Virus record (IMG/VR): IMGVR_UViG_3300022562_001644
Location: 27,959-91,958 of that record
Direction: 5' to 3' (one strand)
Source: a virus
DNA length: 64,000 nt
Each line of letters opens with the position of its first letter. The first letter of the stretch is position 1. A program made the position numbers and the translations under genes. The notes beneath the pieces are model-generated. The model worked only from the letters and a program-made list of their open reading frames with translations. It had not been told where the DNA came from and made no database searches. This document shows, one piece after another, positions 6,557 through 28,619 of this stretch.

Positions 6557-6849
6557 CCCCGTCCACGTCGCGACATGCGACCGATGGTCTTGAGCCCCAG
6601 GGCGGCCAGGAGACCGCCGAGAGCGCCCTTCTTGAGAGCTCCCACGGCAGTCTCCTGGGGTCCGTCGTATGGGTTGGGGGAGAAGCCGGCCTTGACGCTG
6701 TCGATGGCATGGCCCCCGAGTCCTGCCAAAGCGCCGCCGACCCCGAGTCGTTCATACAGGCGGTCCGGCCCAATCCGGATTTTCGCCTGCTTAGCGAAGC
6801 CCCCCGGCCTGAGCCGGAGGAGTTCGTCGGTGAACGACTGTAGGTTCAT
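6553..6849 (-). CDS. small tagged virion/cargo protein, Gly-rich hydrophobic
   Basis: N-terminal SFTDELL...FAKQA; two Gly-rich hydrophobic segments. Confidence 0.65.
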   Translation of the reverse strand: MNLQSFTDELLRLRPGGFAKQAKIRIGPDRLYERLGVGGALAGLGGHAIDSVKAGFSPNPYDGPQETAVGALKKGALGGLLAALGLKTIGRMSRRGRG

Positions 6850-6855
6850 TGAGGT

Positions 6856-7626
6856 CTACTGGTTGGCGAACAGCGGCTGGCCAGCGCCGGTGAGCTGCAT
6901 ACGGATCGGGCGAACCTGATCGAACTGAAGACTCACGCCCTCCATGAGGAGGACAGAGCCAGAGCTGATGGACAGCTGGTGGCCCTGGATGTAGCACTCC
7001 TCGAGATAGACGGCACCGAGAGTCATGTCGAGCTGGTTGCGGAAGTAGATGCAGATACCAGTGGGCTGATTGAAGATATCCGACGCCAGGTTCATCCAGA
7101 GATCGTCATAGCCTGGATTGAACCGAACCCTGTGGAGCTCTTGCTGAAGCTGAGGAAGATTCAGCAGAGTCTTGTTGGGGTTGGGAATATCGACGCCGCC
7201 GACATTGACCGTGTCATCGCTTTCGTTCAGGAAGTTGAACTTGTCGGAAGCGGTCTGTTTGTAGTGGGCGTACAACACCTTCAGAAGGGATGGACCGTGG
7301 TAGAGGACTCGACCCAGGGTGATCGAACCAATGGTTCGGCCGGGGATGAAGTACGAGCGGCTGGAGCCAATCTCGAAGATTCGCTGAAGCTGCTTCGACT
7401 GGCTCAGGCCTACGTTCTCTAGAACTCCGATGGGGAATACCTGGTCCCCTTCGTCGTCGGTCAGGGCGTCATCGCCATTGCCGATGTCACTAAGCCGAGG
7501 AGGCCCGGCGGCGATGAGCGTTGTCTCTGCCGAGACAAATTCACCGCCGAGGAGCTCCTCTTGGACGTGGTGGTTGTGGAAGTCCCAGTTGTTGAAGGAC
7601 GTGGTTGCTGCTGGACGAAGAGGCAT
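6856..7626 (-). CDS. tail tube protein (putative)
   Basis: Directly downstream of the sheath; LQRIFEIGS..YFIPGR..GSITL; beta-rich; SD AAGGAG. Confidence 0.7.
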   Translation of the reverse strand: MPLRPAATTSFNNWDFHNHHVQEELLGGEFVSAETTLIAAGPPRLSDIGNGDDALTDDEGDQVFPIGVLENVGLSQSKQLQRIFEIGSSRSYFIPGRTIGSITLGRVLYHGPSLLKVLYAHYKQTASDKFNFLNESDDTVNVGGVDIPNPNKTLLNLPQLQQELHRVRFNPGYDDLWMNLASDIFNQPTGICIYFRNQLDMTLGAVYLEECYIQGHQLSISSGSVLLMEGVSLQFDQVRPIRMQLTGAGQPLFANQ

Positions 7627-7645
7627 TGTTTCTCCTTACCTGGGA

Positions 7646-10480
7646 CTAGACGAGAAGGGTCAGCTTGATGTTGTTGAGTGGAATCGGAATGGAGATGTCG
7701 ATGTCGATCTCCACCGTATCCGGCGCGATATCGGACTCCTCGATCCTGGTCAGAGAGCCGCCGCGGAGCGGAGCTCCGATTCGAGCAACTCGTTGATCTA
7801 GCAGGAAAGTGATGCCGCTCTGCCCCCTGGTCTTGAGTAGGTCCAACAGACCGTCGGTGATGTTGTAAATACCCAGGAACGGGCGATAGAGGCGACGGAA
7901 GAATCGCGCGATGAGGTCGACGTTCTTCGTGACCGAGAACTCCTGGAAGTAGATCGTGGTCAGGTCGGTGGTCAACTGGTGGCGAACAATGAGAGCAGCG
8001 TCCGGCACTGGCTGAACGAAGATCATGTTGCCGCCGCCGGCGATAGTGTCGAGCTGGACGTCGCTGAAGATGTCATCCGAGTTCTCGCGACCAACGAATC
8101 CAGTCAGGGCAAGATTGGTGAAGCCCTGCTGGCTCGGCAGTCCGGCGGTTAGGCCAGAGAGAACCGGTGCAGCAAAGTACCCTGGGATGAGAGTTGCTTC
8201 GCCGTTGACCGACACGGCAAGCCTGTCCGGCCAGGTGTGAACGACACGGCGGCTTCCAAAGGAGCTCGCGTATCCGGCCAGGAAGTCCGCTTGCTCATTG
8301 AGCGAGAGGTCTTTCGTGATGCGGTACTCTACATCGGTAAGGGTGCCACCGAATCCAGCGGTCGGATCGGAGTCGAGGGTGATCTGAGACTCAGAGTCAA
8401 TCGATGCAATCGGATGACGAGTGCCAGTAATGAAGGCATCCTCGGTCGCATTTGGCGTGACCGACACGACATCGAGAGTCGTTAAGGTCGGAGTGGTGAG
8501 ACCGTTGAATTCCTCGGTGACCGGGACAGTGCTGTTGTCTGTCCGAACGACCGTAGAGGAGAGAACAGCCTCGATGATGTGATCGGCGTTGTTGGCGCCG
8601 TTGGTAGCACCAGCAACACGCAGCTTCCGACCGATGTCGTCATCAGTGAAGATCGCGCCGAGGATAGTCCACTGCCGGCTCGGTCCGTCGACGGAGTCGG
8701 AGACAGCATCGCGAGCAGGCTCACGATTGATGTCGTACAGGGTCGCCGCATGGCCGGCAAATGTTTCGTCAGCCCCGGGAACCTCGATGGTGGTGATGGT
8801 CGTAGAGCTGAGGACGTTTCCTACGGTGAAGACGCCGTCATTGAGCCCACCGACAGTTCCGGTGATGTACAGCAGGCGACCGATATCAGCCGGCGTGAAC
8901 GCGCCATTGGTGAAGGTCCAGGTCTTGGTGGCCTGGACAACATTGTCGACACCGTCATCGGTGGTGATGGCTCGAGCCAGGTCAACAATCCAGGCACGGG
9001 TGCCTGCGGCCATGAGCTCGGCGCCGCCCGGCGGAGTCGGGGTCACACCGACCTTCGCAGTGCTCACGATGGAGGCAATTGCGTAGGCGATATCATTGGC
9101 CGGGCTGGTCGCACCGCGGACCAGGATGGTTCTCCCGACGTCTGCGGCAACGAACTCGCCGTTGGTGATCTGGATTTCATCCGGGCCAGCGGTGAAGTAG
9201 TCTCGCTCGTCCGGAGTTACCGAACGCTGGACACCTTCAACAGCGGTGTACGAAATGATTTCCAGCAAGGAGCCAACAGTCACGTCATCGGTGATGAAGC
9301 TTCCGTTGTCTGGGTCGCGGAACTGAGTGTTTTCGGTTCCGGCGATTCCATTGCCGACGCCGGAGGATGTCTCGGTGCCAATCCCGCTGGGCGGGACAAG
9401 AACTTCGACTGTGCGAATCTTTCGGTTGAAGAAGCAGACCCTTTCCCTGCCGACGGTTGATACAGACATGCCTTCGACATGAGCCTTGGCGAGCTGGTGA
9501 ACGGCAGTGTTGTGGGTCATTACGGCAATGCCGTAGACGTCCTTGTTCTCAAGGAACTCCAGGGCGTCCTGCCAAGCCTGCTCTTCATTCGAGAGAAACC
9601 CTCCCCCCAGGCCAGTAAAGCTAACCTCGGTGGTGGTGTTCTGCAGGGCGAGGTTTACGCCGTAAGCGCCGACGTTCGAGGGAACAATGTTGCCAATCCC
9701 GAAGACGGCCTCAAGAGAGTCTAGGTCGGTGAATACCGTAAGGTCTCCGGCTAAGTCAGGTCGGAGAGCTCTCCAGGAGAGCAGAACGGTTCCCTCAACG
9801 ACAGGAAGAGGGGTCGCATCGTTGCTTTGAAGGCCGGGGAGGACGTCGACGCTGGTGGCGGTCTTGGTGATGCCGTTGGCAGCAAAGTCTTCTTCTGAGT
9901 ACTCTTCTTCCGCTCGGTACTCAAGGACTCGGTACTCGACGTTGGTTAGGGGAAGAGCACTCTTCCACTCGGCAGCGAGAACAAGGGTGTTGTCATCGGT
10001 CTTCCTGATAACAAGCTTACGCCCCTGGTCGGCTGGATCTATGCCAACTGCATCGATGATGTCGACGTAGAAGACGGGGGCACCCTCTGCGTCAGGATCG
10101 AACGATGAAAAGGCGCCAGCCGTGGCATCGGTGAAAAGATTTGGAGTGTCGAGGACTCCAGTAATCTTGCTGGCCGATGGCAGCGGGGGTTCTTTTACGA
10201 GGTAGACGTCCTGGAGCTTGAAGCCAACGCCCTTGTGGGCACTAGCCTCGGCTTCATCATCGGGAGCATCGCCGAGGTCAACAATTGCACCCACCTCGAG
10301 CCCGACATAGGGATACGAGGTGATGGAAAGGTTGTCCTCAGAGTAGACACCGGCGTTGACGTCGTCTTCGATTTGGTAAGCCGGTCCGGCTACCAATGCG
10401 GGAAGAGACGGAAGCGCAAGTGCGGCGGCGGCTTGCTGGAACTCTTGGATTACTTCAACTGCAGGTCGGCGATATGCCAT
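7646..10480 (-). CDS. tail sheath protein with inserted repeat domains
   Basis: MAYRRPAVEV start; sheath-type C-terminus (VRHQLTT..EFSVTKNVD..IPIPLNNIKLTL); 944 aa. Confidence 0.85.
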   Translation of the reverse strand: MAYRRPAVEVIQEFQQAAAALALPSLPALVAGPAYQIEDDVNAGVYSEDNLSITSYPYVGLEVGAIVDLGDAPDDEAEASAHKGVGFKLQDVYLVKEPPLPSASKITGVLDTPNLFTDATAGAFSSFDPDAEGAPVFYVDIIDAVGIDPADQGRKLVIRKTDDNTLVLAAEWKSALPLTNVEYRVLEYRAEEEYSEEDFAANGITKTATSVDVLPGLQSNDATPLPVVEGTVLLSWRALRPDLAGDLTVFTDLDSLEAVFGIGNIVPSNVGAYGVNLALQNTTTEVSFTGLGGGFLSNEEQAWQDALEFLENKDVYGIAVMTHNTAVHQLAKAHVEGMSVSTVGRERVCFFNRKIRTVEVLVPPSGIGTETSSGVGNGIAGTENTQFRDPDNGSFITDDVTVGSLLEIISYTAVEGVQRSVTPDERDYFTAGPDEIQITNGEFVAADVGRTILVRGATSPANDIAYAIASIVSTAKVGVTPTPPGGAELMAAGTRAWIVDLARAITTDDGVDNVVQATKTWTFTNGAFTPADIGRLLYITGTVGGLNDGVFTVGNVLSSTTITTIEVPGADETFAGHAATLYDINREPARDAVSDSVDGPSRQWTILGAIFTDDDIGRKLRVAGATNGANNADHIIEAVLSSTVVRTDNSTVPVTEEFNGLTTPTLTTLDVVSVTPNATEDAFITGTRHPIASIDSESQITLDSDPTAGFGGTLTDVEYRITKDLSLNEQADFLAGYASSFGSRRVVHTWPDRLAVSVNGEATLIPGYFAAPVLSGLTAGLPSQQGFTNLALTGFVGRENSDDIFSDVQLDTIAGGGNMIFVQPVPDAALIVRHQLTTDLTTIYFQEFSVTKNVDLIARFFRRLYRPFLGIYNITDGLLDLLKTRGQSGITFLLDQRVARIGAPLRGGSLTRIEESDIAPDTVEIDIDISIPIPLNNIKLTLLV

Positions 10481-11189: not shown

Positions 11190-11707
11190 GTAGTCGGGTT
11201 CTCATCTTCGACTTCCTTCAAAGCCTCTTCGAAGGCGTCGCCCAGTCTATTCCTAACCGTGTTGGTTACGGTGTTTTTCATGGATTCGACGGAAGCCTTT
11301 TCTGACTGCTCACGGAAGATGTTCTCGAGCTCGATGCGACGGAATACGAGGTCCGATCGGCCATCTGACCGAGACCTGATTTCGGGGACTCCAGTGCTGG
11401 CCTCGAACAAAGACTCTACCGATACGGCATCGACCCCCTCAGACTTGTCATGTTGAGCCATCTTCGAGGTGGCCCCAAGAATTTCGCTGGCATTGTCGGA
11501 GGTAATAACGAAGCGATTCCCTTCCGTCTTAACCTTGACTGCTGCACCGGGAGCTCTGTTGAGCCCTGGATCTGCCTGAGTGTTCAGATCTCTCTCAATG
11601 TTCTTGCCGATCTTGTCGTTCACCCTCTGCAAAACGTCTTCGTAATTATCGAAGGCCGTCGACTTTCTCAGGTCGAATCTGAACCAGTTGTTGAAGTTCG
11701 TGCTCAT
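11186..11707 (-). CDS. hypothetical neck-region protein
   Basis: Translationally coupled ORF in the neck cluster. Confidence 0.55.
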   Translation of the reverse strand: MSTNFNNWFRFDLRKSTAFDNYEDVLQRVNDKIGKNIERDLNTQADPGLNRAPGAAVKVKTEGNRFVITSDNASEILGATSKMAQHDKSEGVDAVSVESLFEASTGVPEIRSRSDGRSDLVFRRIELENIFREQSEKASVESMKNTVTNTVRNRLGDAFEEALKEVEDENPTT

Positions 11708-11952
11708 GAGAGGCTGGAAAAGTTCGTCAGGTGATTGGGGGTGGTCAGCGGAGTTGGTGCCACATTGTATTGAGCGGTGGCGGTTAACTGCGGCTGGCCA
11801 GACTTGAGTCCAGTCCTTGCGCCTGATCCCTGTGTTGCATCCATCACGGACTGGATCGCAGACGCGAGGTCATATCCGGCCGGTCGCTCATGCTGAGGGT
11901 AAGCTGCTATCTTGATGAGCTCGTCGGCAAATCCGCGCATGAAGTGATTCAT
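11704..11952 (-). CDS. small tagged cargo protein
   Basis: Starts MNHFMRGFADELIKIAA. Confidence 0.7.
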   Translation of the reverse strand: MNHFMRGFADELIKIAAYPQHERPAGYDLASAIQSVMDATQGSGARTGLKSGQPQLTATAQYNVAPTPLTTPNHLTNFSSLS

Positions 11953-12827: not shown

Positions 12828-12831
12828 CGAC

Positions 12832-13336: not shown

Positions 13337-13798
13337 CTAGCCTTCCCCGCGCCTGTTACGACGCTTTTTCTTCGAGCTCGAGTCATCCTCGGAACTCGAA
13401 TCAGCATCGTCGGCGGAGGAAGACTCATCGCTGTCCGTTTCCTCCGCGGACGCAGCCTCGGCCTCAGCCAAGGCTTTTGCCTCGGCCTCAGCCTTCGCTT
13501 TCGCCAAAATCTCAGCCTTGGCTTTTTCCTTGGCTTCAGCCTCGGCCTTGGCCTTGGCGGCCCCGTCGTCCGAAGCCTGCTTAGCAGGCTCGGACTCGGG
13601 GAAGATCGGAGTAGGAGCGAACGAGCCCTCCTCGAGCTTCAGGACACCGGCGTCAACCAGAACCATGGTTCCCTTGTCCAGTCTGTTGACCGGACACTTG
13701 TCCCCTGGTTTCAGAAGTTTTCCGGCCTCAGTCAAGAAGACGTTTCGAGCACCCTTCTTGGATGAGGCGGAAATGTTTGTGACCCTGTACTTGAGCAT
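13337..13798 (-). CDS. hypothetical protein with AKAKAEAE low-complexity tail
   Basis: Follows the capsid gene; K/A/E repeats and an acidic then basic tail. Confidence 0.7.
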   Translation of the reverse strand: MLKYRVTNISASSKKGARNVFLTEAGKLLKPGDKCPVNRLDKGTMVLVDAGVLKLEEGSFAPTPIFPESEPAKQASDDGAAKAKAEAEAKEKAKAEILAKAKAEAEAKALAEAEAASAEETDSDESSSADDADSSSEDDSSSKKKRRNRRGEG

Positions 13799-13849: not shown

Positions 13850-14743
13850 TTAGATCAGGGTCATCTTGGCGGCGGCACGGAGGTTTCCGTAGCCCATACC
13901 GACGTATTCCCAGGTCTGCCAGGAGACCATGTCAGCACGCTTCTCGATGTAGAACTTGGTGTCGTTCAGAATGTAGAAGTTGCCGAGGTATTTGGGGTCG
14001 GTGAAGATGTACAACGTTCCCGGGGGCACGATCGACGACTTGATCGTGACGACCAGCTTGTGGCCGAGGATGGTGTTGTACTTGTAGCCGTTGACCAGGA
14101 TCTCCGAGGCCAGCGGCGAGCCGATGACGGCCGACTCCTGGGTCATGAAGTCGTCCCAGTCCGCCTTGTGCATCAGGATGGTGCCAACGGCGAGCTCGTC
14201 GGTGTCGAGGGCCTTGAACAGTTTCACCAGGTTCTCGGAGGTGGCCGGGCCGGCAACCGCCGGGGCAACGTCCTTGCCGTTCGCGGCGATGACCGCGTCG
14301 GTGAACTCGATGAACTTTCCGTCCTCGATCTTCTGGATGTCCTTGACCGAGTTCTCCTCGATGACCTTGGTCACCGGGAAGTCGTAGGCCAGGAGCTCGG
14401 CTTCGTTCTTCTTGAACTTTTCCGATTCGATCTTGAAGAACGGAATCTCGTAGCGGTCGCCCTCGATGTACCGCTCGAACGCCTTGCCTCGGAAGTTCAC
14501 CGCGGCCGCCGAGCTCTGGGGCTCGATGTCGACGATCTTCACGAGGGTGTCGTGATTGACCGAACGCTGGCAGTCCGCCTTGGTGACGTATTCCGGGGGA
14601 AGAATCGAACGGGTGAACGAGACTTCGCGCAGGCGCTCGCGCACGAAAGCGCCACCCGCCTGAGCGGCCTTCTCGAGACCGTCGTTGGTGTCCAACCTGG
14701 AAATGAACAGGTTGTTAAAGGTTGCGGCATCAATCTGATCCAT
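13850..14743 (-). CDS. major capsid protein (HK97-fold, putative)
   Basis: 297 aa; strong SD and strong GC3 bias; HK97-like C-terminal pattern (ILGHKLVVT..VPPGTLYIF..GMGYGN); downstream of protease/scaffold genes. Confidence 0.75.
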   Translation of the reverse strand: MDQIDAATFNNLFISRLDTNDGLEKAAQAGGAFVRERLREVSFTRSILPPEYVTKADCQRSVNHDTLVKIVDIEPQSSAAAVNFRGKAFERYIEGDRYEIPFFKIESEKFKKNEAELLAYDFPVTKVIEENSVKDIQKIEDGKFIEFTDAVIAANGKDVAPAVAGPATSENLVKLFKALDTDELAVGTILMHKADWDDFMTQESAVIGSPLASEILVNGYKYNTILGHKLVVTIKSSIVPPGTLYIFTDPKYLGNFYILNDTKFYIEKRADMVSWQTWEYVGMGYGNLRAAAKMTLI

Positions 14744-16104: not shown

Positions 16105-16977
16105 CTAGCCGGTGATGATTACGGGACCGCGACCAGACTTCTGCTTGTCGCCGCCGCCAGAAAGCGCCCTGTGACCCATATATCCCGCGCCAGCGTAGAG
16201 AGCAGGTTTCTTCATGGCATTGAGCTGCTTGCTGGTGAGACCAACCTCAGACCCACCAATCGTTCCGCTGACGGCGTAGTTCTTGGTGGCTTTCTCGCCA
16301 GCCTGAGCTGCCTGCATGGGGACAGACTTTTTCAGGTCATCGAACCCTGGAACCTTTTTGAAGCTCGTGTTTGGCATCGAGGTAAGAAGATTCAGTGATG
16401 AATCGTCGCCGAGATTCCGCCTCATCCTGGATAGGATAGCCATTTTCTCTGCTTCACTGGCACCCTCGGCCCTTCTAAGAACATCCTGCCACTCGCGAAT
16501 GTTCTTGCTGCTGTAGGCCTGAGCCTTCTCAAGCTTTTGGCCGGCTCGACCGAACCTTTTGGTCGCTACAAATTCTCGGGCCCGACGGCCCACTCGCCCG
16601 AAGACAGCCTGTTTCTCGAGAAACTCAGCAACCTCATGCGGGCTATGGCCAGCGTCAAGGGCAGCTTTGATGAAAGCTGCTTCCTTGGAGCCAAACTGCG
16701 CGGCCACCTTCACCGACCCTGGAGAGGAGTCTTCGATTTCTCGAAGCTCGGACAGAGTCCGGCCAATGATGGCGACCGCAGCAGTTTTCTCGACCAGTTC
16801 CTGCTGGTTCGACGAAACGACCTCTTCGGGGGTCGCCTCTGCAGCACGACGACACCGCTCGGCCAGTTTCTGAAGATCAGGTCCCTGGCTTTTTGCGGCG
16901 GCTTGTTTTTTCAAGCTGCCACCGGAGAGCTCGCTGACTCCGGTGACATCAAGAAGTTGATCGAGTGTGTAGCCCAT
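16105..16977 (-). CDS. processed head/cargo protein
   Basis: Multiple K-x-A sites (KKQA, EKTA, VKVA, EKQA); Gly-rich C-terminal segment. Confidence 0.65.
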   Translation of the reverse strand: MGYTLDQLLDVTGVSELSGGSLKKQAAAKSQGPDLQKLAERCRRAAEATPEEVVSSNQQELVEKTAAVAIIGRTLSELREIEDSSPGSVKVAAQFGSKEAAFIKAALDAGHSPHEVAEFLEKQAVFGRVGRRAREFVATKRFGRAGQKLEKAQAYSSKNIREWQDVLRRAEGASEAEKMAILSRMRRNLGDDSSLNLLTSMPNTSFKKVPGFDDLKKSVPMQAAQAGEKATKNYAVSGTIGGSEVGLTSKQLNAMKKPALYAGAGYMGHRALSGGGDKQKSGRGPVIITG

Positions 16978-17019: not shown

Positions 17020-17475
17020 CTAGCCGGGGTAGTGCTTAGAGATCAGGTGAGAGACGTAAGAAGGGTCTTCGGCCATGCGCTCGAGGATTGCAGCCTTGAT
17101 GGAGGCCTTCTTCTCGGACTCTTCGCCGCCCTTGTCTTCCTCGCCTTCACTCTTGGCTTTAGTTTCCTCGTCCTTTTTCTCGGACTCGGAAGACTTCTCG
17201 CCTCGAGCTTTCGCCATGAGGGCGGCGACGGCTTTCTCTTTCTCGCCTTCGCTCGCCTCAGGCATTTCCTCTTCCATCGCCTCTTTGACCAGATCGGCCA
17301 TGACGTGATGGGCGAGAACTCGACCAATGTGGTCGTAGTCCTGTGCTTGCTTGATCAGCTCAGCGTCGACATTCGAGAAGTCGGCTCCGTACTGAGCGGA
17401 AGCCTGCGCCTGGGCTTCTTTGACGTGGTCTTGCTCATTGAGCGCCACGAACACTTCTTTGAGTGAGTTCATCAT
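17020..17475 (-). CDS. acidic scaffold-like protein
   Basis: SLKEVF..VKEA..IKQAQDYDHIGRVLA..DLVKEA; paralogous motifs with 17523 and 20829. Confidence 0.65.
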   Translation of the reverse strand: MMNSLKEVFVALNEQDHVKEAQAQASAQYGADFSNVDAELIKQAQDYDHIGRVLAHHVMADLVKEAMEEEMPEASEGEKEKAVAALMAKARGEKSSESEKKDEETKAKSEGEEDKGGEESEKKASIKAAILERMAEDPSYVSHLISKHYPG

Positions 17476-18239: not shown

Positions 18240-20175
18240 GAGTGGTTCCTTTCTTTTTCTGCGCGAGCCGCTTGATTGCTTTGAAAATGGCTGCGTCGAT
18301 GGCTGCGCCAGCCAGTACAGCCGGCATGAGCTTTGAGGATGATCCCACCGCATACAGCGCCATGTCTCCCATTGCGCTGCTGTGCTTCGTGAGGTTTTTC
18401 ATCCCTTTCATCACCTGAGGTGCCAAGGCAAACGAGGCGAGTCCGGCAATATCTGGACGCATCGCTACGAAGCGATCGAATGCGTTCAGTTTTGCTCCCT
18501 GTCTCCATCGTTTTTGTTGGACGCCTGAGTAAATGTAAGCGAGGGGAATGAGGCCAATACGGGCCAATGGGTTCACCCCTGCAGTCTTGGAATGATGGTA
18601 GGCGGATGATTTCTTACCGTCAAGCCCGCGTCCTGTGCCGTTAGGACTTAATGGCATGGGCCTGTCTTGGGCGTCAAAGCCAACTGTAGCCCCGATTCCA
18701 GCACCGATTAGAATCGGAAGCAGCCACGGGTGCTTCGCCAGAGCCTTGATTGGGGCCGGTCCTTTGGTCACAAGCCCCGGGAAAGCCCTGCGGAAAACCA
18801 AGAATCCACCGGCCAGAGCCATGCTTGCTGGAAGCATTCCTCTCGTGCCCGACGAGGCCCGCAACCCCTCTTCGGTCATCGGATACCACTGGTTGCCCCT
18901 ATCGTATCCGTCGAAGTCAGCTTTCTTCTCCATGTCTTGGAGGCGCCCGAGAAGAATTTCTGGGTAGCAGGACCGGTCAGCGACATAGGGTCGAAGCATC
19001 ATCGCCACCTTTTCGCTGACGTCATCTTCCCCAAGCTGCGCAAATTCACTTGACCAGGATGGTGGCGTCGAGCTCGGTCTGGTCTCATCGAAAACCAGGC
19101 GATTCCGCTCGAGCTGGTCGGCGAGCTTCACATGCCCCTGCTTGATTAGGATGATTCGCTGGAATTCCTGCGGTCGAAGATCGATACCAAGAGCGGCGAT
19201 AGTGCCAAGAATTTTCCGCAGAGGGAATCCGTTGGACAGTCGGTCGAGAAGTTCGGGCGGCAGCGGTCGCTCCATCCCTTTGACCGTGCCAGCGTCCTCC
19301 ATAAAGGAGTTCAGCTTGGCCTTGTCCTCGGGGGTGGCCCCTTCAATGTTCGCCGCCGGCTGCGAAGGAACATCTTTCTCGATCTCGGCCCGCTTGTCCT
19401 GGGCGGCCCGCTTATCTTCTGCAGACAGCTTGGAGTAGAAGACTTCCCCGAGTTCCGCTGACGGACGCACCTCATATGGGCGCTGAGTGTAAGCCACCTT
19501 CTTGAGGACATGGCTAGCCTTCTCGGCGCCAATGGTGACGAAGCTGATGTCGAAAAACTTCGGAAGCCTGTTGTAGGCAAAGACCCTGCGACCATCCTGC
19601 AAGATCTTGTTCATTTGGTAGCGCAGATGCGTGCAGTACTCACCACGGTTCCGTGCGCGGTTTTTACAGATGGAGCATTCGTCCCACGGGACCTTGCAGC
19701 CCATCGAGACATCCCAGTAGTGGTTCTTTGCCAGGTCGCCAAGAATATCCTGACACTTCATGTCGTCGACGATGACGATGAGAAGAACCCGGTGCATGTT
19801 GGGGTCGTAGGCAGATAGCTTGACCTTCTCCCCGTATGCGCGCGCTGGGTCTTTGTTGACATGGTGCTTGTACGGGTAGGCGTAATGCATGAACGTCTCG
19901 TACCCGTAGTCGGCACCTTTGTGGCGGAGGGCTTCTTCGGGGAAGTAGTCTCCGTTGACGTTCGATCCGTAGTACTCGCCAGCCCCCATCGCATCGATGA
20001 GGAGCTGCGTCTTCCCGGGGATGGGCTTGGCCGACCGGATGTAGTTTTCCATCTCCGGTGGCAGCGGACGAGCCATCTTGATATGGCCGATGGTCTTGTT
20101 GACGTCGGCCTCGATGGGAAAGATGTGGGGTCCGGTAGCGTTGTCGTACCCCGCAAATGTGACAAGCTTGTACAT
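18223..20175 (-). CDS. prohead (maturation) protease with C-terminal extension
   Basis: NVNGDYF..HH.NKD..VSMGC..CSIC..C.H..FFDISFV..GA pattern of HK97-type prohead proteases; head-cluster position. Confidence 0.75.
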   Translation of the reverse strand: MYKLVTFAGYDNATGPHIFPIEADVNKTIGHIKMARPLPPEMENYIRSAKPIPGKTQLLIDAMGAGEYYGSNVNGDYFPEEALRHKGADYGYETFMHYAYPYKHHVNKDPARAYGEKVKLSAYDPNMHRVLLIVIVDDMKCQDILGDLAKNHYWDVSMGCKVPWDECSICKNRARNRGEYCTHLRYQMNKILQDGRRVFAYNRLPKFFDISFVTIGAEKASHVLKKVAYTQRPYEVRPSAELGEVFYSKLSAEDKRAAQDKRAEIEKDVPSQPAANIEGATPEDKAKLNSFMEDAGTVKGMERPLPPELLDRLSNGFPLRKILGTIAALGIDLRPQEFQRIILIKQGHVKLADQLERNRLVFDETRPSSTPPSWSSEFAQLGEDDVSEKVAMMLRPYVADRSCYPEILLGRLQDMEKKADFDGYDRGNQWYPMTEEGLRASSGTRGMLPASMALAGGFLVFRRAFPGLVTKGPAPIKALAKHPWLLPILIGAGIGATVGFDAQDRPMPLSPNGTGRGLDGKKSSAYHHSKTAGVNPLARIGLIPLAYIYSGVQQKRWRQGAKLNAFDRFVAMRPDIAGLASFALAPQVMKGMKNLTKHSSAMGDMALYAVGSSSKLMPAVLAGAAIDAAIFKAIKRLAQKKKGTTHGHSQ

Positions 20176-20816
20176 TAGGTTGGCGGCTTAAAGGTCGTAT
20201 TGCTGAGCGCGTTGCGTATCCTTGGAGCCGGCACAGGAGCACTGGCTACACTTCTCTGCGCTTGAGGCTGGAAGCTGGGGGTGAAGGACCCTTTTGGAGT
20301 GCCAGATGGGTTTAGCGCCCTCATAACGCCTCCGGCGAGCTGCTTTGCTTTGCCTACCTGCTTGCTGCCCTCAGCCTTCTGGTAGGCGTCCCAGCTCTTC
20401 TTCTTCTCAAGCCTGACCGCTCTTTCCTGATTCGTCTCCCAGGCCGGCCTATCGTACTTGGCCGCCGCGCCGCCCTTGCCCCTGTTACCAGAACCGCGCT
20501 GTTTGGACGCAGCCGGTGCTGATTCGGGCGATGAGTCGAACTTGATTCCAGGGGCTGGCCGATACTGCGCTGGTTGTTCGGTGGGCCTGTAGGCACCAGG
20601 GCTAACCCTCGAAACATTGACCGCCGGCTTCCCAAGAGGGCCAACCTCTGCCGGCTTTGGAGCCGGAGGGGATTTGGGCGCACCGCCCCCTGCCGGCTTT
20701 GAGGCCGGAGGGGGCTTGGGCTGGCTCGCCCGAAACGTACTTTGCTGCTCAAGTGGGGCCTGTGCGACCCCAAGCTTGAGCAGTTCAGTAGCGAATCCGT
20801 GCAGGAAGTGGTTCAC
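20175..20816 (-). CDS. Pro-rich tagged cargo protein
   Basis: Starts MNHFLHGFATELLKLG (GTG start); disordered body. Confidence 0.65.
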   Translation of the reverse strand: MNHFLHGFATELLKLGVAQAPLEQQSTFRASQPKPPPASKPAGGGAPKSPPAPKPAEVGPLGKPAVNVSRVSPGAYRPTEQPAQYRPAPGIKFDSSPESAPAASKQRGSGNRGKGGAAAKYDRPAWETNQERAVRLEKKKSWDAYQKAEGSKQVGKAKQLAGGVMRALNPSGTPKGSFTPSFQPQAQRSVASAPVPAPRIRNALSNTTFKPPT

Positions 20817-20828: not shown

Positions 20829-21254
20829 TCAGCCCCGCTTCGGCACAGTGCCAGTTGCTCGAGAGTGAGTAACCGATTGCGAAGCTCCAAGGTCATTTTG
20901 GGGCTTCGGGGTAGAAGCCTTCCTGGATCCAGGCATACTAGAATAGCCAGTGTTCGATGACTTGGTGTTCCCACCAGTCATTTTCGACATTGGCCAGTTT
21001 GCCTTAGTCTGCGATGGACCTCCAGACAACTTCTGGCCGGCTACACTGTACTCGTTGTTCTTGTTAAGTTGAACGACGCCGCCCGTGAGATTCGGCGCAG
21101 CAAGCTTGCTGAGCTCATCGGCGAAACCGCGAGCCATGATGCGACCGGCGGCATCTTCTTCTTCGGCTTGCTTCCACATTTCAGCCGCTTGCTTTTCGAG
21201 CTCCTCGTCCAAGGGGACGATTTGCTGGTTGTACAGATCTGTAAGACTATCCAT
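20829..21254 (-). CDS. tagged head protein
   Basis: SLTDLY..EKQA..DAAGRIMARGFADELSKLAA. Confidence 0.7.
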   Translation of the reverse strand: MDSLTDLYNQQIVPLDEELEKQAAEMWKQAEEEDAAGRIMARGFADELSKLAAPNLTGGVVQLNKNNEYSVAGQKLSGGPSQTKANWPMSKMTGGNTKSSNTGYSSMPGSRKASTPKPQNDLGASQSVTHSRATGTVPKRG

Positions 21255-21280: not shown

Positions 21281-22366
21281 TTAATCCCCGGCGACCAGTT
21301 TCTTAAGCCCGCCGAACGTTCTTCCGGCGAGACTGGGTTGTGGTTTGCGTCCAACTTTGGCCAAACGGCCAAGACCTTTCATGCCCGCGCGTCCGAGAAG
21401 GAAGGCGCCGAGACCCACGGCGAGTTTGCTCTTGGATGCATCCTCAAGCAACTTTCCACCCCTATCCACAATCTCACGACCACCTTCTTCGCCCGTTCTC
21501 ACGATGTTGCGTCCGAGCTCCTCGAGGGAGACAGCAGACTTTTCCATCCCTCGGTTGTACGAGGTCCCAAGGAATCGCTGCGGCGCCGCAGGGGCGGAAG
21601 CATGCTTGCCCATCTGATGACCCGAGCCCTTGCCCATACGCATGCGACCGCCTTCGACCAGGCCGTGACCCGTGCCGGTGTAGGCCGGTCCCTTGGCAGT
21701 GGTGCTGTGGAAGCGTTCGCCGCCAGCCTCGAGGGCCTCGGGTTGCTCGTATGATGGGCGATGGAATCCGGTCGGCAGACCGTCGCTCTCCATCACGTCA
21801 ATGTCGCTTGGAGTGGCAGCCGCGGACTTCTCTTCACTGTCTTCACCCTCTTCACCCTCTTCGGCCTTGCGTTCTTTGCCGCCGGCGGCATTGGCAAGGA
21901 GGTCTTGGAGACGATCCGTGTCGTTCTCCTTCTTCTCGGACTCCTTGCTTTTCACGCCCTCGCCAGAGCCGTACATGCCGCCACCCTTGCTGCCGGGCTG
22001 AATCATGACGTTCCGGCCCACCGACTGACCGCTCAGCATGCCATCATTGGGAGGCGAGACATTCATTCCTCCGCCGGCCGGAGTACTCGCTGCTTGCGCG
22101 CTCTTCTCGTGGAAGTTTGCGTCATCCCGGCCTGGCATGTCACGAAAGAACCGACCAGCCTGAGGACGAGCCATCTTCTCGAAGAACAAGCCTTCGGATG
22201 CTTTCTTTTCTCGCATGGGGGGTAGGTTCTTTCTCTTGGGGTTTACCTGAGGGTTCTTCTTCTCGGGAAGATTTTTGAAGCTCTTCGTCTCGTCAGCCCA
22301 CTCTTTGGCCTTACTGGGATTGGTGGCGAACATCCACCTTTGCTGGGCTTTGGACTTGAAGGGCAT
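21281..22366 (-). CDS. processed cargo protein
   Basis: MPFKSKAQQRWMFA start; repeated EKKA/EKMA/EKSA; C-terminal hydrophobic helix. Confidence 0.7.
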   Translation of the reverse strand: MPFKSKAQQRWMFATNPSKAKEWADETKSFKNLPEKKNPQVNPKRKNLPPMREKKASEGLFFEKMARPQAGRFFRDMPGRDDANFHEKSAQAASTPAGGGMNVSPPNDGMLSGQSVGRNVMIQPGSKGGGMYGSGEGVKSKESEKKENDTDRLQDLLANAAGGKERKAEEGEEGEDSEEKSAAATPSDIDVMESDGLPTGFHRPSYEQPEALEAGGERFHSTTAKGPAYTGTGHGLVEGGRMRMGKGSGHQMGKHASAPAAPQRFLGTSYNRGMEKSAVSLEELGRNIVRTGEEGGREIVDRGGKLLEDASKSKLAVGLGAFLLGRAGMKGLGRLAKVGRKPQPSLAGRTFGGLKKLVAGD

Positions 22367-23200
22367 TTACTTCCCCGATGCGGCCTGTCGGCGATGCTGC
22401 ATGAGAGCTCGATGGTAAGCAAGAACACCTTCGCGGCGACCGATCATGCGAGCCTGCTGGGCCACGTCCATGACATCTTTGCTGCCGCTCTCGTAGCCGG
22501 ACTTTCTGCCTCTGCGCCGACCGACCTCAGCGCCAGCGGCTCCGGTTGCGCCAGCCACGAGAAGGCCTTTGCCAACACTCATCTTGCCTGGAGTTCGACC
22601 TTGGGCAGCTCGACGCCCGACCATTTGAGCAAGGCGGCCCATCGATGGGCGAGCCATCTTGACCAGTTCGTCACCGAAGCCACTAATAAAATTCATCGCT
22701 ACTTTCTCCCTTTGAGCTCGATCGAGAAGATCCTGCATGAACTGCGCCTTGCGTGGAACCACTTCTTTGGTTTTTTCGTTGTGAATGAAGAACTCAGAGA
22801 AGGTGTCGCAGAAATCTTCCTCTGGGCTTGTTTTCGCATAATCGTCGACAAATCCATCGCCCTTTGTTGACTCAGACCATTCTAAAACAAGGGAAGGGTC
22901 GTGTTTGAGGATGGCGTGAGCGAGCTCATGATAGACAGATCGGCGAAACTGTTCAGGATCAATCTTCCCGTCATGATACACGCCCTTGTCGAATACAACA
23001 ATTGCGCCGAGCTTCGGCTCGTACTTTGAATGCCCCGGAGCCTCGGGGGGTGCATTTATGAGGACCGGCCGCCTGATGATGCTTTTGATATGGGGGTTTT
23101 GCTCGAGCCATGCCGACGGCAATGGTTTGAGCATCGCCAAGAGATGGCGAGCCTCCTGGGGCGACCATTTGCCCTCGAGCTCGACGCCGCGAATTCTCAT
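22367..23200 (-). CDS. zinc metallopeptidase-like protein fused to tagged membrane domain
   Basis: YHELAH...YAKTSPEEDFCDTF (lethal-factor-like zincin pattern), then EKVA-MNFISGFGDELVKMA. Confidence 0.7.
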   Translation of the reverse strand: MRIRGVELEGKWSPQEARHLLAMLKPLPSAWLEQNPHIKSIIRRPVLINAPPEAPGHSKYEPKLGAIVVFDKGVYHDGKIDPEQFRRSVYHELAHAILKHDPSLVLEWSESTKGDGFVDDYAKTSPEEDFCDTFSEFFIHNEKTKEVVPRKAQFMQDLLDRAQREKVAMNFISGFGDELVKMARPSMGRLAQMVGRRAAQGRTPGKMSVGKGLLVAGATGAAGAEVGRRRGRKSGYESGSKDVMDVAQQARMIGRREGVLAYHRALMQHRRQAASGK

Positions 23201-24807
23201 AGGACACGCGCGAGGTCCGAATACATCTTGGCAAGCACGCCGCCAGAAAGAGCAGCGCCAGCTGCGACCAGTCCAGCAAAGCGAAGAGGATGGCGCTCAC
23301 GCCACTCGTCGTTGGTGCGGCTGTGAACCAGAGCAAGACCTTCGTCTGAGCCCGATTGAGTTCTGCGAACGTCCGCTGGGTCCATCCGCTTCCGAACCTC
23401 CTTGCCGCTTTCTGTACCGTAAAGATACAGACCGGCGAGGGTCGCAGGCACGGCAGAGATCATCGCGCCCTGGATAAATGTTGGATCGGTGCCAACTTCT
23501 TTGGCGGCCTGAGTGACCCGGTGCAGAACCTCGCGGTTGTTGATCATGTCCTTGGACTGCTGGGCGATTTGCTTCCCAAGGAAGGCTGCGTCTCTCCCCG
23601 CCGATCTGATGCCTCGAGCGGCTTGCCCGATGAGATCTACTGGATTCATAGACCTAGCAAGGTCAGAGATGGCACCGCTGGTTTTCTCCAGGTCTTGCAG
23701 CTTCTGGGCAATCAAGTCTTCGGTCTCACCCTTCTCCTCCCTTGCCTCCCGCATGTACTTGCGAGCAAGCGAGAGCCCAACGATCGTAGGGATGGCACCG
23801 AGAACGTAGGTTCCCCACCCTGCACCAAGACGCTTGAGGGATTTCAGCGCAGCCGCACGCCCTTCTGTCTCCTTGATGTGCTGAAGTGCGAGGACCGACG
23901 CCTTAGCCTCCGGGTAGAGAGTCGTTGCAGCAATCGTGGCCCCGGCAATCTCCGGGGCATGCCTTTGCATGAACTCAATGGCCTTGTCGTCGATGGTTCC
24001 CGGGAGAAGCTCTTTGATTCGATCACCGGCAATGAGCGCGGTGGGCAGAGCAATCTGCGCACTTCTGCGAAGCAATGGCTCCAGGTTTGCGCGAACCTTG
24101 CCAATCCGACCCTTGGTATAGTCGGCTGCGTGGCCGAGTTCGTGTAGCGCGAGCTCCTTGCTGACATCGGGGAGGTAGACGCGCTTTGTTGCGAGCTCGT
24201 ATCGAGGACCAAGCATCCAGTTGAGTGGTCCCTGCTTTAGGTTTGTGGTGACACCCTTTTGAGCCAGGTTGTGCTTGTCGATGAATGAGTCGACGGTGTC
24301 CGTGATCTTGCTAACGGTACCCAGCACATTTATCCGCTTCTCCCCCAGAGGATGTTTCCAGGTGTGCTTGTACTCTGGGTTTTCTGCGAAGCGAGCGAAG
24401 GCTTCGTCGGTCTCCTTCAATACAGCCTCCGGAATGCCAGGTATCCGAGCCTTCACATCAAAGAGACCAAGCAAGCGAGCTTTCGGATCCTTCGCACCGT
24501 AGTTGAGATCACCCAGCCGTTTCAGATCGGACGCCTGGGTCTGCCTGATGATTGTTGCGAACGGAGACTCCTTATCACCCTTCATCATTGCGTTGCGGAG
24601 GGCCACGTTGCCAAGGAAGCTGGCGACCCCGCCAACGGTGGAGCCGCCGACGGCGAGTATTCCTGCCATGGCTCGTTCCCCTGGATCAATACTTTGTGGA
24701 TCCGGGTCGCGAGTGAAAGGCTTCTGCTCAATATCTTGAGCGGTATCTACCGCAGACTCTGTCGCGGTCTTCTCGTTCAAGAAGAATGTAAGGGGATCCC
24801 TGCTCAC
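23197..24807 (-). CDS. membrane-associated HExxH metallopeptidase-like virion protein
   Basis: LHELGHA...EAKAS; several Gly/Ala-rich TM segments; EKTA near the N-terminus. Confidence 0.65.
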   Translation of the reverse strand: MSRDPLTFFLNEKTATESAVDTAQDIEQKPFTRDPDPQSIDPGERAMAGILAVGGSTVGGVASFLGNVALRNAMMKGDKESPFATIIRQTQASDLKRLGDLNYGAKDPKARLLGLFDVKARIPGIPEAVLKETDEAFARFAENPEYKHTWKHPLGEKRINVLGTVSKITDTVDSFIDKHNLAQKGVTTNLKQGPLNWMLGPRYELATKRVYLPDVSKELALHELGHAADYTKGRIGKVRANLEPLLRRSAQIALPTALIAGDRIKELLPGTIDDKAIEFMQRHAPEIAGATIAATTLYPEAKASVLALQHIKETEGRAAALKSLKRLGAGWGTYVLGAIPTIVGLSLARKYMREAREEKGETEDLIAQKLQDLEKTSGAISDLARSMNPVDLIGQAARGIRSAGRDAAFLGKQIAQQSKDMINNREVLHRVTQAAKEVGTDPTFIQGAMISAVPATLAGLYLYGTESGKEVRKRMDPADVRRTQSGSDEGLALVHSRTNDEWRERHPLRFAGLVAAGAALSGGVLAKMYSDLARVL

Positions 24808-24816
24808 GGGGTTCCC

Positions 24817-25509: not shown

Positions 25510-25511
25510 GA

Positions 25512-25847
25512 CTATCTCCGAAAGGCCTCTTCTTTGTATTTACCATGGATGCGCTCGAGCTCGCGCTCAGTCGGCTTGTTCTTCATAAGCCGATTGAAAT
25601 TCGTTGTCGCCGCTGGACTGACGTAGGCCTGCCTGGCTATCGGGTCGTATCCGGCATGAAGGTAGCTCTCAGCCTGCTCGCCGGATCTTCCACGCTTGTA
25701 TCCCTGCCTTGCCGCAAGGGCTGTTCCGCCGACGGTCATCCCCAACCCGAGGGAATGAAGGGGGTGTTTTACAGCAAGGCCCAGAAGCTTTTTTGCAATA
25801 GCTGTCTTGACGAGCTCGTCACCAAACCCTGCAAGAAAATGGTTCAT
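25512..25847 (-). CDS. small tagged membrane cargo protein
   Basis: Starts MNHFLAGFGDELVKTA; GLGMTVGGTALAA segment. Confidence 0.7.
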   Translation of the reverse strand: MNHFLAGFGDELVKTAIAKKLLGLAVKHPLHSLGLGMTVGGTALAARQGYKRGRSGEQAESYLHAGYDPIARQAYVSPAATTNFNRLMKNKPTERELERIHGKYKEEAFRR

Positions 25848-26794
25848 GACAGCTCGCGGAGCCTCTGGTGGTAAACCTTCACCTCGTCATCGATACGCAG
25901 AAGGTTGTGGAGACCGTTCTTGATCTCGCCGGTCTTGCGCTGAACGGTATCCAACGAGATGAGGACGGGGTGAGCACCATTGATGACGGTGACGTTCCCC
26001 ATGTCATCACTGATGTAGTCCTCCGGGGCCTTTGAGATCGCCATCTTTTCCAGTCTAAGACGGGCGCTTCCGTGAACCTCCTTGAGGAGGCGTTCCTCGA
26101 AACGTGGAAGATATTCTTCGGCGACCTTGTGCAATCCAGACCCCGACGCAGCTTCGTAAATCTGCCTGAAGGTGGCACCACCGAGAACAGCTTGTTTCAC
26201 AGTGGCATAGGCACTCTTCTCAAGCGATTCAAGCTCCATGCCTTTGTAAAGAACCTTGTCCTCGGCGTCCTGGCGTTCGGCGGCCTTTTTCTGGAGGATG
26301 ATGATGATGCGCTTCTTTTCACCGTCCTCGTGAAGACCATTGTGCACGGCGGCGGGATCTGCGCCCATCATTGAGATGGTCGACGGGCCGGACAGGGGGA
26401 TACCCTTCGGCGGACCAGCGTAGTCGGAGTCTGACATCGGAGGACAGCTGACCATCGGACTCTCTGGATCGTCGGAGTCAAGCGGCTTCTTTCCGACAAC
26501 CTGAACAACGGTCTTGGCATCTGCCAGAGGGAATGCAATGGACTCCTTCTGGGCGGTCTTTGACCAAAGAGCTCGATGAGTGGCAATGTTGGCCATCTCA
26601 CAGATGCGCTCGATCTGGTTTGCGTTCAGATCGTTTTCTTCGGCGATCTTCTGAATCGTGGAGTTGAGCGGAACTCGTTCTTCGAGATATCGCTTGGCTG
26701 CAGTTTTGGCCAGAAGCTCGAGGCGATCGGCCGCAACCTTGATATGTCGACTGCTCGGTTCGGAAAGCAGGTAGTTAAAGTGGCTCATGGACAT
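25844..26794 (-). CDS. processed head protein
   Basis: Many K-x-A sites (IKVA, AKTA, SKTA, EKSA, EKMA); helical. Confidence 0.7.
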   Translation of the reverse strand: MSMSHFNYLLSEPSSRHIKVAADRLELLAKTAAKRYLEERVPLNSTIQKIAEENDLNANQIERICEMANIATHRALWSKTAQKESIAFPLADAKTVVQVVGKKPLDSDDPESPMVSCPPMSDSDYAGPPKGIPLSGPSTISMMGADPAAVHNGLHEDGEKKRIIIILQKKAAERQDAEDKVLYKGMELESLEKSAYATVKQAVLGGATFRQIYEAASGSGLHKVAEEYLPRFEERLLKEVHGSARLRLEKMAISKAPEDYISDDMGNVTVINGAHPVLISLDTVQRKTGEIKNGLHNLLRIDDEVKVYHQRLRELS

Positions 26795-27555: not shown

Positions 27556-27564
27556 TCGGTTCCT

Positions 27565-27581
27565 GGCATAAGAAGGATGAA
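27565..27581 (+). promoter_or_regulatory. putative phage-RNAP promoter
   Basis: GGCATAAG-AAGGA-TGAA. Confidence 0.7.
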
Positions 27582-27594
27582 AGGAGAACTTCTT

Positions 27595-28044: not shown

Positions 28045-28046
28045 GC

Positions 28047-28090
28047 CACAGCGGGGGGCCTCACGGTCCCCCGTTGCGGTTTTTTTTAGC
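28047..28090 (+). terminator. intrinsic terminator
   Basis: GCGGGGGGCC-TCAC-GGTCCCCCGT stem followed by T8-AGC. Confidence 0.85.
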
Positions 28091-28109
28091 TATCGGGTAG
28101 ACTGTGGGC

Positions 28110-28619
28110 ATGGATAACGTCCTCGAGGGGTTTGCCGATGAGCTTGTAAAGCTCGCTGGGAAGCGGAGTTCGTCGGCGGGCGCGGAGGACGAAGACCTTC
28201 TCGCTCTCTACCAAAGGGTGAAGAGCAGAAGTGACAAGGGCCTAAATGATAGCACTCTGAAAAAAATCAGAGGTAAGGGACGTCAAGTCAGTCGCGATTA
28301 CCTGGCGTCCACCCTGATTGGCTCTGTCGCAACCCCAGTTGCCCTCCTTGGAAGCAAGCGGATCTCGAGAGCCTTGCACAACCGAGAAGTCCTCAAGGCC
28401 ATGCAGGGTGTGAAGGGGAGGCGTCGAAAAGCCCTGGCTGGATACCTAGAGAGCGGCCCTATGCTTGGGAAGACGAAGGTTCCTGGGATGATGAAGGGCA
28501 AGAAGCCCATGATGACCCACGCCGAGCTAGCCGGTCACTCAATTCGCGGTGGAGCGATGGGTTCCATCATCCAGATGCTGCGAGACCGGTTCTCTGGCTC
28601 AGCTGGCATCGGCGAGTAG
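28110..28619 (+). CDS. tagged basic cargo protein (leaderless)
   Basis: MDNVLEGFADELVKLAG; TAGACT at 28098-28103 lies 6 nt before ATG 28110. Confidence 0.7.
   Translation: MDNVLEGFADELVKLAGKRSSSAGAEDEDLLALYQRVKSRSDKGLNDSTLKKIRGKGRQVSRDYLASTLIGSVATPVALLGSKRISRALHNREVLKAMQGVKGRRRKALAGYLESGPMLGKTKVPGMMKGKKPMMTHAELAGHSIRGGAMGSIIQMLRDRFSGSAGIGE

Follow-up and report, generated by a model that had tools for sequence, protein, structure and literature searches.

A portable peptide tag on head proteins of an uncultured contractile-tailed phage: a candidate capsid-targeting propeptide

Introduction

To our knowledge, capsid targeting sequences (CTSs) have been established experimentally essentially for bacteriophage T4 alone. 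The T4 CTS of the internal proteins IPI–III and Alt, reportedly described by Mullaney and Black in 1996, is removed by the prohead protease gp21. An N-terminal peptide of 10 residues is enough to bring a protein into the core of the prohead, and the gp21 cut falls at the last residues of this peptide (PMC9026906, sections 2.6–2.7). Here we describe a 16-residue peptide, “the tag”, that recurs in seven proteins of a head-gene cluster in 64 kb of viral DNA (“the window”, positions 27,959 to 91,958 of IMG/VR record IMGVR_UViG_3300022562_001644). An earlier note on this DNA had proposed that the peptide is a cargo-loading signal of the capsid.

Several other head-assembly systems are relevant to this comparison. 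Assemblin, the maturational protease of herpesviruses, cuts at (V/L/I)-x-A↓S sites (↓, cleaved or candidate bond) and is a precedent for Ala at P1 in the protease fold discussed below. Encapsulin cargo-loading peptides and the coat-binding helix-turn-helix of the P22 scaffolding protein are C-terminal and are not removed by a protease. In phages phiKZ and SPN3US the proteases (gp175 and gp245, respectively) recognize S/A/G-x-E sites, and propeptides are found on inner-body and ejection proteins (PMC9026906, PMC10052503).

Results

A 16-residue tag occurs seven times in the head-gene cluster

The tag has the consensus M-N-x-F-L-x-G-F-x-D-E-L-x-K-x-A, with Ala or Gly in the last position. The window is the right-hand 64 kb of one 91,958-bp viral contig, which is approximately 51% complete according to CheckV and in which a terminal repeat is absent. 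A six-frame search of the entire 92-kb contig with the strict pattern GF.[DT]E[LF]..[LIMT][AG] gave exactly seven matches, all of them at 11.9–28.1 kb of the window. The earlier note had suggested a profile scan; using a 16-column profile hidden Markov model (HMM) trained on this phage and its close relatives, the seven tags scored 24–35 bits and the next-best open reading frame (ORF) segment of the window 4.6 bits, a 20-bit gap to background. The motif, its statistics and its helicity, its restriction to head genes and its portability, together with the protease fold and the linkage of tag to protease, were all computed directly.

11905–11952, minus strand: Tag 1, MNHFMRGFADELIKIA, 35.2 bits, the best HMM match
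17826–17873, minus strand: Tag 2, GRIMARGFFDEFQKLA, 24.8 bits
20769–20816, minus strand: Tag 3, NHFLHGFATELLKLG, GTG start, 25.8 bits
21099–21146, minus strand: Tag 4, GRIMARGFADELSKLA, 29.6 bits
22652–22699, minus strand: Tag 5, AMNFISGFGDELVKMA, 24.1 bits
25800–25847, minus strand: Tag 6, MNHFLAGFGDELVKTA, 31.9 bits
28110–28157, plus strand: Tag 7, MDNVLEGFADELVKLA, 27.6 bits

All seven tags are confined to the head-gene cluster. Every peptide that the note quoted is present where it was placed. Its count of at least eight tags, on the other hand, comes down to seven full copies: the sequences at 6849 and in 17020–17475 hold only the terminal half, h-x-K-x-A (h, hydrophobic). The first belongs to a 98-aa protein (6553–6849, minus strand) encoded after the tail tube gene, which gave no HMM hit and has a weak half-match, FTDELL...GFAKQA; the second is a degenerate copy that does not score as a full tag in the HMM.

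Between tag copies, codons were identical at only 46% of identical residues, and the tag core showed 67% nucleotide identity with free synonymous variation. It is therefore the peptide, and not the DNA, that is conserved.

The tag is attached to mostly unrelated proteins

Outside the tag, the tagged proteins have no mutual similarity (all E > 0.3), and Pfam, PHROGs and PDB sequence searches returned nothing for them. The carriers had been described as unrelated, which holds for most of them. The exceptions are the scaffold-like proteins 17020–17475, 17523–18353 and 20829–21254, which are paralogues with a common helix preceding the tag.

In the N-terminal class (four genes: 11704–11952, 20175–20816, 25512–25847 and 28110–28619) the start codon is at tag position 1, and across relatives it lies exactly there in 23 N-terminal copies. 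Tag 1 begins an 82-aa protein encoded among the neck genes, with GAGG at −12, and was retained in five of five orthologues, the remainder of the protein being 47% identical. Tag 3 begins a basic, Pro/Ala/Lys-rich 213-aa protein (post-tag pI 10.7) encoded just upstream of the protease gene; in the gene at this position in loci L001 and L002 little beyond the tag could be aligned (16 aa and approximately 50 aa, respectively). Tag 6 begins a basic 111-aa protein (post-tag pI 10.2), and Tag 7 a basic protein on the opposite strand (post-tag pI 10.9). The Tag 7 gene starts at ATG 28110 rather than GTG 28104, and its orthologues all begin M-x-P-[FLM]-[LM]-x-G-F.

In the scaffold class the tag is internal, always in the form x-K-x-A-x-E-y-D-A-A-G-R-I-M-A-R-G-F-x-D-E-[LF]-x-K-L-A, and the carriers are acidic scaffold-like proteins with pre-tag parts of pI 4.1. 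The internal copies in 17523–18353 and 20829–21254 agree with the note's view that the helix is shared with scaffold-like proteins. Tag 2 lies in the first of these (17523–18239, ORF open to 18353), encoded just downstream of the protease gene, and is preceded by IIKIASEYDAA, as in all orthologues.

In the third class, represented by 22367–23200, Tag 5 is also internal and reads E-K-V-A-M-N-F-x-x-G-F.... It stands between an HExxH domain, which resembles Peptidase_Mx1/ATLF-type zincins, and a 94-aa very basic tail (pI 12.0). Tag 5 begins at a conserved Met (ATG 22696) with a Shine-Dalgarno-like AAGGGAG upstream, and the sequence upstream of this ATG, AAGGGAGAAAG, is much like the ribosome-binding site of the capsid gene, AGGAGAAAG. 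An in-frame internal start at 22696 could also yield a separate 109-aa, N-terminally tagged basic protein.

The post-tag parts are basic in five of six cases (pI 10.2–12.0), rich in Gly, Ala, Pro and Ser, and mostly disordered. Their basicity resembles that of the T4 internal proteins (PMC9026906, section 2.6). Some had been described as membrane-spanning, which the hydropathy calculation does not show: no post-tag part has a 19-residue window with a Kyte-Doolittle mean of ≥1.5, and the segments concerned are Gly/Ala-rich and moderately hydrophobic.

The tag is predicted to be an amphipathic helix

The hydrophobic moment of the tag helix was 0.39–0.55, which is in the top 0.1–7% of shuffles, and residues M1, F4, L5, F8, L12 and L15 share one face. 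Tag 4 closes a conserved 52-residue N-terminal helix of protein 20829–21254, which has 116 metagenomic homologues, all unnamed. In these homologues conservation is approximately 4 bits per column at residues 28–52, and the signal collapses right after A52, the terminal Ala. In an AlphaFold model of this protein, residues 4–52 form one helix (pLDDT 80–89) that ends at the alanine of K-L-A, beyond which the chain is disordered. The amphipathic helix proposed earlier is thus borne out by model and calculation.

A protease with the gp21 fold is encoded in the cluster

18223–20175, minus strand: head maturation protease (phrog_18299), consisting of a gp21-fold domain (residues 1–215), a flexible linker and a 420-aa C-terminal extension
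19492–19509, minus strand: V-L-K-K-V-A, protease residues 223–228, a candidate site of self-processing where the catalytic domain ends

We modelled protease residues 1–245 with AlphaFold (pLDDT 83, pTM 0.77). The sole Foldseek match to the model was T4 gp21 (5jbl, probability 0.99), with which it aligned in VIA-align at Z 12.2 and an rmsd of 3.1 Å over 146 of 165 residues. The next fold matches were the proteases of varicella-zoster virus (Z 6.0) and human cytomegalovirus (HCMV; Z 4.5). His105 and Ser157 are invariant in the protease family. The domain matched no Pfam family at E ≤ 1, and hence no Peptidase S77 or Peptidase_U9 profile, and no PDB sequence at E ≤ 10; the kinship to T4 gp21 is therefore visible by fold only. 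More than 1,200 proteins of this family are present in the protein database; all are unnamed, one belongs to a Planctomycetota MAG, and several are interrupted by inteins (LAGLIDADG/Hint Pfam domains). The cultured Salmonella phage Arash, Vibrio phage D69 and Bacillus phage G share the protease at 48–51% identity.

The candidate self-processing site falls in the low-pLDDT linker 217–235. K226 and A228 did not vary among 51 sequences of the family with identities as low as 48%, and the equivalent sequences are VLEKVA in Arash, VLQKVA in D69 and ILEKVA in phage G.

Two further features of this protein were observed. The protease domain has an invariant Cys cluster, C167, C170 and C181, followed in close relatives by His183 (window 19600–19710, minus strand; residues approximately 160–185), which by its sequence looks like a small zinc-binding insert. 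The 420-aa extension contains Gly/Ala-rich hydrophobic segments.

The terminal motif of the tag is enriched in head proteins

We counted h-x-K-x-A, the last five tag residues, as [LIMFV]-x-K-x-A and derived the expectation from within-protein shuffles. The head proteins of this phage contain 36–38 sites compared to 9–12 expected, whereas in the rest of the genome the ratio was 1.5-fold. The excess in head proteins was 3.9-fold in this phage, 6.6-fold in Arash and 6.3-fold in D69 (z 9–14), and it rose to 6.6-fold, 15.9-fold and 14.9-fold, respectively, when S, A or G was required after the Ala. Counted by module, Arash has 38 sites in the head (5.8 expected) and 7 in the tail (6.1 expected); the corresponding numbers for D69 are 36 (5.9 expected) and 2 (2.3 expected). 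The head of phage G has 10 sites compared to 3.9 expected.

As controls, 13 sister patterns were counted in the same way (E, Q, D or R for K; S, G, L, E or V for A; reversed order; shifted spacing). Eleven of them did not exceed 2.2-fold; the strongest were h.K..A (2.4-fold in this phage) and h.KA (2.6-fold in D69), with z ≤ 4.6. Helical composition as the source of the excess was rejected on the basis of these controls. Glu-type motifs were at background in head proteins, at 1.1-fold (T4-type [LI].E) and 0.95-fold (phiKZ-type [SAG].E) of the shuffles, and T4- or phiKZ-type Glu sites were accordingly rejected as the relevant motif. Among orthologues, the K and A residues inside h-x-K-x-A sites were 81% conserved, compared to 46% for other K and A residues of the same proteins (p = 2e-7).

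The sites are repeated within single proteins, three of which are listed here.

16105–16977, minus strand: head protein with six h-x-K-x-A sites, a scaffold or core candidate
17020–17475, minus strand: acidic scaffold-like paralogue (pI 4.8) with the degenerate tag and two h-x-K-x-A sites, ELIKQA and DLVKEA
25844–26794, minus strand: head protein with six h-x-K-x-A sites, its N-terminal part homologous to Arash gp220 and D69 0268

Both sites of 17020–17475 are retained in six of six orthologues. The acidic scaffold-like proteins of Arash and D69 carry eight sites each; this number was counted in Arash gp220 and gp223, both scaffold-like, and in D69 0268 and 0271. [LMI]-x-K-x-A-[SAG] is extremely dense throughout the head modules of these phages (Arash gp218–226, locus L003; D69 0266–0275, locus L004).

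Neither the tag motif nor a K-x-A protease site turned up in literature searches. Because its pattern in the head matches that of the cleavage motifs in T4 and phiKZ heads (PMC9026906), h-x-K-x-A may be taken to be the sequence that the proteases of this lineage recognize, with the cut probably following the Ala. The earlier note had invoked a prohead protease cutting at the terminal K-x-A; a gp21-fold protease is indeed encoded, and the terminal motif is specific, restricted to the head and conserved in position, which is consistent with cleavage.

The capsid protein has a tag-like N-terminus

13850–14743, minus strand: major capsid protein, 297 aa (phrog_2522)
14663–14743, minus strand: N-terminal 27 residues of the capsid protein, tag-like (FNNLF...DGLEKAA), a candidate propeptide ending in K-A-A

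The capsid protein is 32% identical to that of Arash and 22% identical to gp27 of phage G. The K-h-A site at residues 23–27 is kept in 20 of 21 capsid homologues (40–95% identity), directly before the conserved GGxFVRxRLRE and the conserved fold. The site reads EELVKLA in locus L038, where the whole N-terminal peptide, ...INSLFGQALNDPEELVKLAEAGG, looks like the tag. Arash and D69 have DQGLVKEA↓G and DQGLTKEA↓G, respectively, and the acidic residues near the site are not fixed as Glu.

The tag is linked to one protease and capsid lineage

Six related viral contigs, with proteases 62–66% identical, are syntenic. These close relatives keep the tag while the tagged proteins diverge; the capsid protein is approximately 95% identical, and the gene upstream of the protease aligns little beyond the tag.

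A wider viral scan was carried out with a back-translated DNA pattern for G-F-x-D-E-L-x-K-x-A, which has a chance rate of approximately 2.3e-10 per position. More than 115 viral loci matched, compared to approximately 40 expected by chance, and about one third of the viral matches listed are chance matches such as the C5-methyltransferase motif GFPDELFKKA. Tag positions 4 and 5, which are free in the pattern, were hydrophobic in 56% of the viral matches listed and in 8% of the cellular matches. The scan of cellular genomes gave chance-type matches only, with no head genes nearby. Judged from these scans, the tag is virus-specific.

Of the short viral loci matched, at least 34 carry head-module homologues (capsid protein 40–52%, protease 30–42% identity). 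The protease family was present in eight of nine contigs with tag-like matches, the exception being a half-complete fragment, and in none of five contigs with chance-like matches.

The number of tags varies between contigs: there are 7 in this phage, 12–19 in a 155-kb relative, and 2–3 strong copies plus weaker ones in each of three complete genomes of 178–209 kb. The 155-kb relative has 17 tagged small genes, which follow one another in an array of 7 and an array of 10 (G001:C1:33000-38500 and 47000-54500; loci L133 and L134) at a distance of 75–90 kb from the gene for the protease. Most of them open with M-N-x-F-x-x-G-F-F-D-E-L-x-K-[IL]-A at residue 1. The sequences that follow the tag are 39–240 aa long, have pI values of 7.4–11.8 and include one similar pair only, so the portability suggested earlier is seen here in 17 mostly unrelated small genes. 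The tags of this genome share a flavour of their own, F-E-[FYL]-G-F-F, which suggests co-adaptation of these sequences to a common partner. In a distant contig (L060) the tag is C-terminal.

When a tagged protein was compared by tblastn to 50,697 cultured phage genomes, chance hits only were obtained, the motif being too short. Diverged look-alikes of the tag start small head proteins of Arash (gp221, ...GLVDGLLKAAG) and D69 (0269, MQELIQGFKETLTDGMDKVAS).

Other genes of the window

The tag region is the structural module of a contractile-tailed phage and is encoded mainly on the minus strand.

7646–10480: tail sheath (phrog_279)
Between the capsid and sheath genes in the listed module order: neck genes
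Between the terminase and protease genes: a stretch of unnamed head genes
23197–24807, minus strand: untagged 536-aa head-cluster protein with a HELGH zincin motif and hydrophobic segments
34264–36033: large terminase (phrog_675)
43735–49926, minus strand: a 2,063-aa ORF

Nearly all of the remaining proteins lack a match in Pfam or PHROGs. The untagged HELGH protein is encoded upstream of the tagged HExxH protein, and the two are fused in one long ORF in relatives L006 and L073. Five h-x-K-x-A sites occur in a 730-aa protein encoded upstream of the terminase (36933–39125, minus strand), which has a weak likeness to Arash gp218 (24% over 109 aa). This protein and 31820–33439 are both candidates for the portal, and no portal profile matches either of them. 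In the 153-aa protein adjoining the capsid gene (13337–13798, minus strand) the N-terminal half is folded and is followed by K-A-E-A-E-A-K repeats and an acidic tail rich in Ser and Asp; it may be a decoration or head-fibre protein. The first 40 residues of 21281–22366 (minus strand; MPFKSKAQQRWMFATNPSKAKEW...) match phrog_1375, and a 41-aa stretch of this N-terminus recurs at 56% identity in unrelated viral loci (L020 and L052); on these matches it is a second short, widespread phage peptide.

Discussion

We favour, with moderate confidence, the reading that the tag is a capsid-targeting propeptide similar to the T4 CTS and is cut by the gp21-type protease. Its two parts can be judged separately: a role in loading proteins into the head appears quite likely, and cutting at K-x-A only slightly more probable than its absence. 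We infer docking and its partner, cleavage with its exact bond, and ejection as follows. The tag helix would dock proteins into the core of the assembling prohead, most likely via the scaffold-like proteins, which have the same helix, and/or the capsid protein, which has a similar N-terminus. After shell assembly, the protease would cut at [L/M/I]-x-K-x-A, probably after the Ala. The cut would free basic, disordered internal proteins and one zincin-like enzyme, which would remain with the DNA and reach the host by ejection. The same protease would dismantle the acidic scaffold and trim the capsid protein and itself.

This locus resembles T4 in several respects. A short N-terminal peptide is common to unrelated, mostly basic proteins that would be internal to the head, a prohead protease with the gp21 fold is encoded, the peptide ends in a candidate protease motif, and the cargo set varies between relatives and is encoded in arrays of small genes. 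In contrast to the T4 CTS, the tag has 16 residues rather than 10 and no sequence relation was seen. The candidate cut motif is h-x-K-x-A, with Ala at P1, instead of L/I-x-E, and no excess of Glu-type sites was seen in the head proteins. Scaffold-like proteins also carry the helix internally, the capsid N-terminus echoes it, and the range of cargo is much larger, with up to 17–19 tagged genes in one relative.

The locus shares with phiKZ and SPN3US a gp21-type protease, many head proteins with (here candidate) processing sites and redundant sites in scaffold-like proteins. Those phages cut after Glu, however, and no single portable leader has been described for them, whereas one conserved leader is found here. 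The protease fold, and a candidate site in which Ala is followed by S, A or G, recall herpesvirus assemblin; compared to the generally known assemblin consensus, the phage motif adds a Lys at the second position and a hydrophobic residue at the fourth position ahead of the Ala. With encapsulins and P22 the tag has in common a short peptide or helix that would dock cargo inside an HK97-fold shell, and the earlier note had drawn the encapsulin comparison. It is an analogy only: there is no sequence relation to the tag, the tags stand at N-termini or inside proteins, and the shell belongs to a tailed phage with a terminase, a sheath and a protease. Set beside the P22 scaffold helix-turn-helix, the tag is internal in the scaffold-like proteins here, where it is modelled as part of one long helix, and C-terminal in the distant contig L060.

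Several observations weigh against a cleaved targeting propeptide. The characterized gp21-type proteases all cut after Glu (PMC9026906), and among phage members of this fold Ala at P1 would be a novelty. The residue following the tag varies within this phage (A, G, V, R or I), and conservation could stop at K-x-A simply because a binding helix ends there. In the three internal tags a cut would leave the tag on the upstream fragment, for which a simple N-terminal leader model has no need. Arash and D69 gave no match to the tag profile despite their protease and K-x-A motif, and no cultured phage carrying the tag was found in the collections searched. The mass-spectrometry supplement for the Arash virion is an annotation table without peptide-level data, and its coverages (100% for several small head proteins; 116 “virion” proteins) cannot discriminate processing.

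One alternative is that the tag is a permanent docking helix, which anchors its carriers to the inner capsid or the scaffold and stays on, with h-x-K-x-A as a binding motif, for example a shared helix-helix contact. This would suit a motif inside an amphipathic helix and a tag that is internal in scaffold-like proteins, and the known phage gp21-type proteases require Glu at P1 (PMC9026906). However, the motif also occurs in the disordered linker at the boundary of the protease domain and at the capsid N-terminus before the conserved fold, a placement that suits cutting rather than docking. Moreover, the eight sites in each acidic scaffold-like protein of Arash and D69, with S, A or G next, reproduce the redundant-site pattern of the T4 and phiKZ scaffolds (PMC9026906). 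We consider a permanent helix unlikely.

It could also be speculated that the tag is a propeptide for processing only, which would hold membrane-active or DNA-binding proteins inactive up to maturation, with other regions of these proteins responsible for loading. The candidate cut motif at its end and the very basic or enzyme-like nature of the cargos are what such a role would lead one to expect. A cut motif needs only the last five residues, though, and positions 1–11 (M/N/F/L/G/F/D/E) are conserved across deep divergence; nor do the post-tag parts have any common candidate loading signal. Processing by itself is thus improbable.

Ordinary paralogy would explain the tag as the N-terminal helix of one duplicated gene, kept for oligomerization, chaperone binding or membrane association. 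Tagged genes do form tandem arrays, the three scaffold-like proteins are true paralogues, and similarity between disordered, low-complexity tails may be lost since they diverge fast. This explanation is nevertheless very improbable: the tag stands at N-termini, behind a folded zincin domain and within acidic scaffold proteins, it goes with a single lineage of protease and capsid, its terminal motif is common to the tag, the capsid protein and the protease, and its D/E/K-bearing polar face is atypical of a membrane anchor. Finally, a DNA-level element that is translated by chance (the boundary of a recombination cassette, a promoter or an RNA signal) would account for the repetition at gene starts, but it was effectively refuted by the codon comparison and is also at odds with the three internal copies and with distant contigs that conserve the peptide and not the DNA, which leaves it the slightest of chances.

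Within the propeptide reading that we prefer, a broader form can be put forward tentatively, as a possibility rather on the doubtful side. One helix would be the common assembly handle of the head interior, on the capsid N-arm, the scaffold and all of the cargo, and it would be released by a single gp21-fold protease whose P1 preference has changed from Glu to Ala. The specificity, [LMI]-x-K-x-A↓[SAG], would span a large lineage including Arash, D69 and phage G and would mirror the herpesvirus assemblin site.

The tag described here is different from the T4 CTS, longer and far more widely used, and it belongs to a large uncultured lineage with contigs of 90–210 kb. An “address label plus clip site” is thereby indicated as a general route by which large phages load fast-changing injected proteins. 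With [LIMFV]-x-K-x-A-[SAG] the gp21-fold proteases would have a new specificity, a prediction that can be tested also in the cultured phages Arash, D69 and phage G, and the motif would allow the mature ends of head proteins to be annotated across the lineage. The tag lets candidate injected proteins of uncultured phages be listed from sequence alone. If the common-handle form is true, the tag would be a transferable protein-packaging label for a large uncultured group of 90–210 kb phages.

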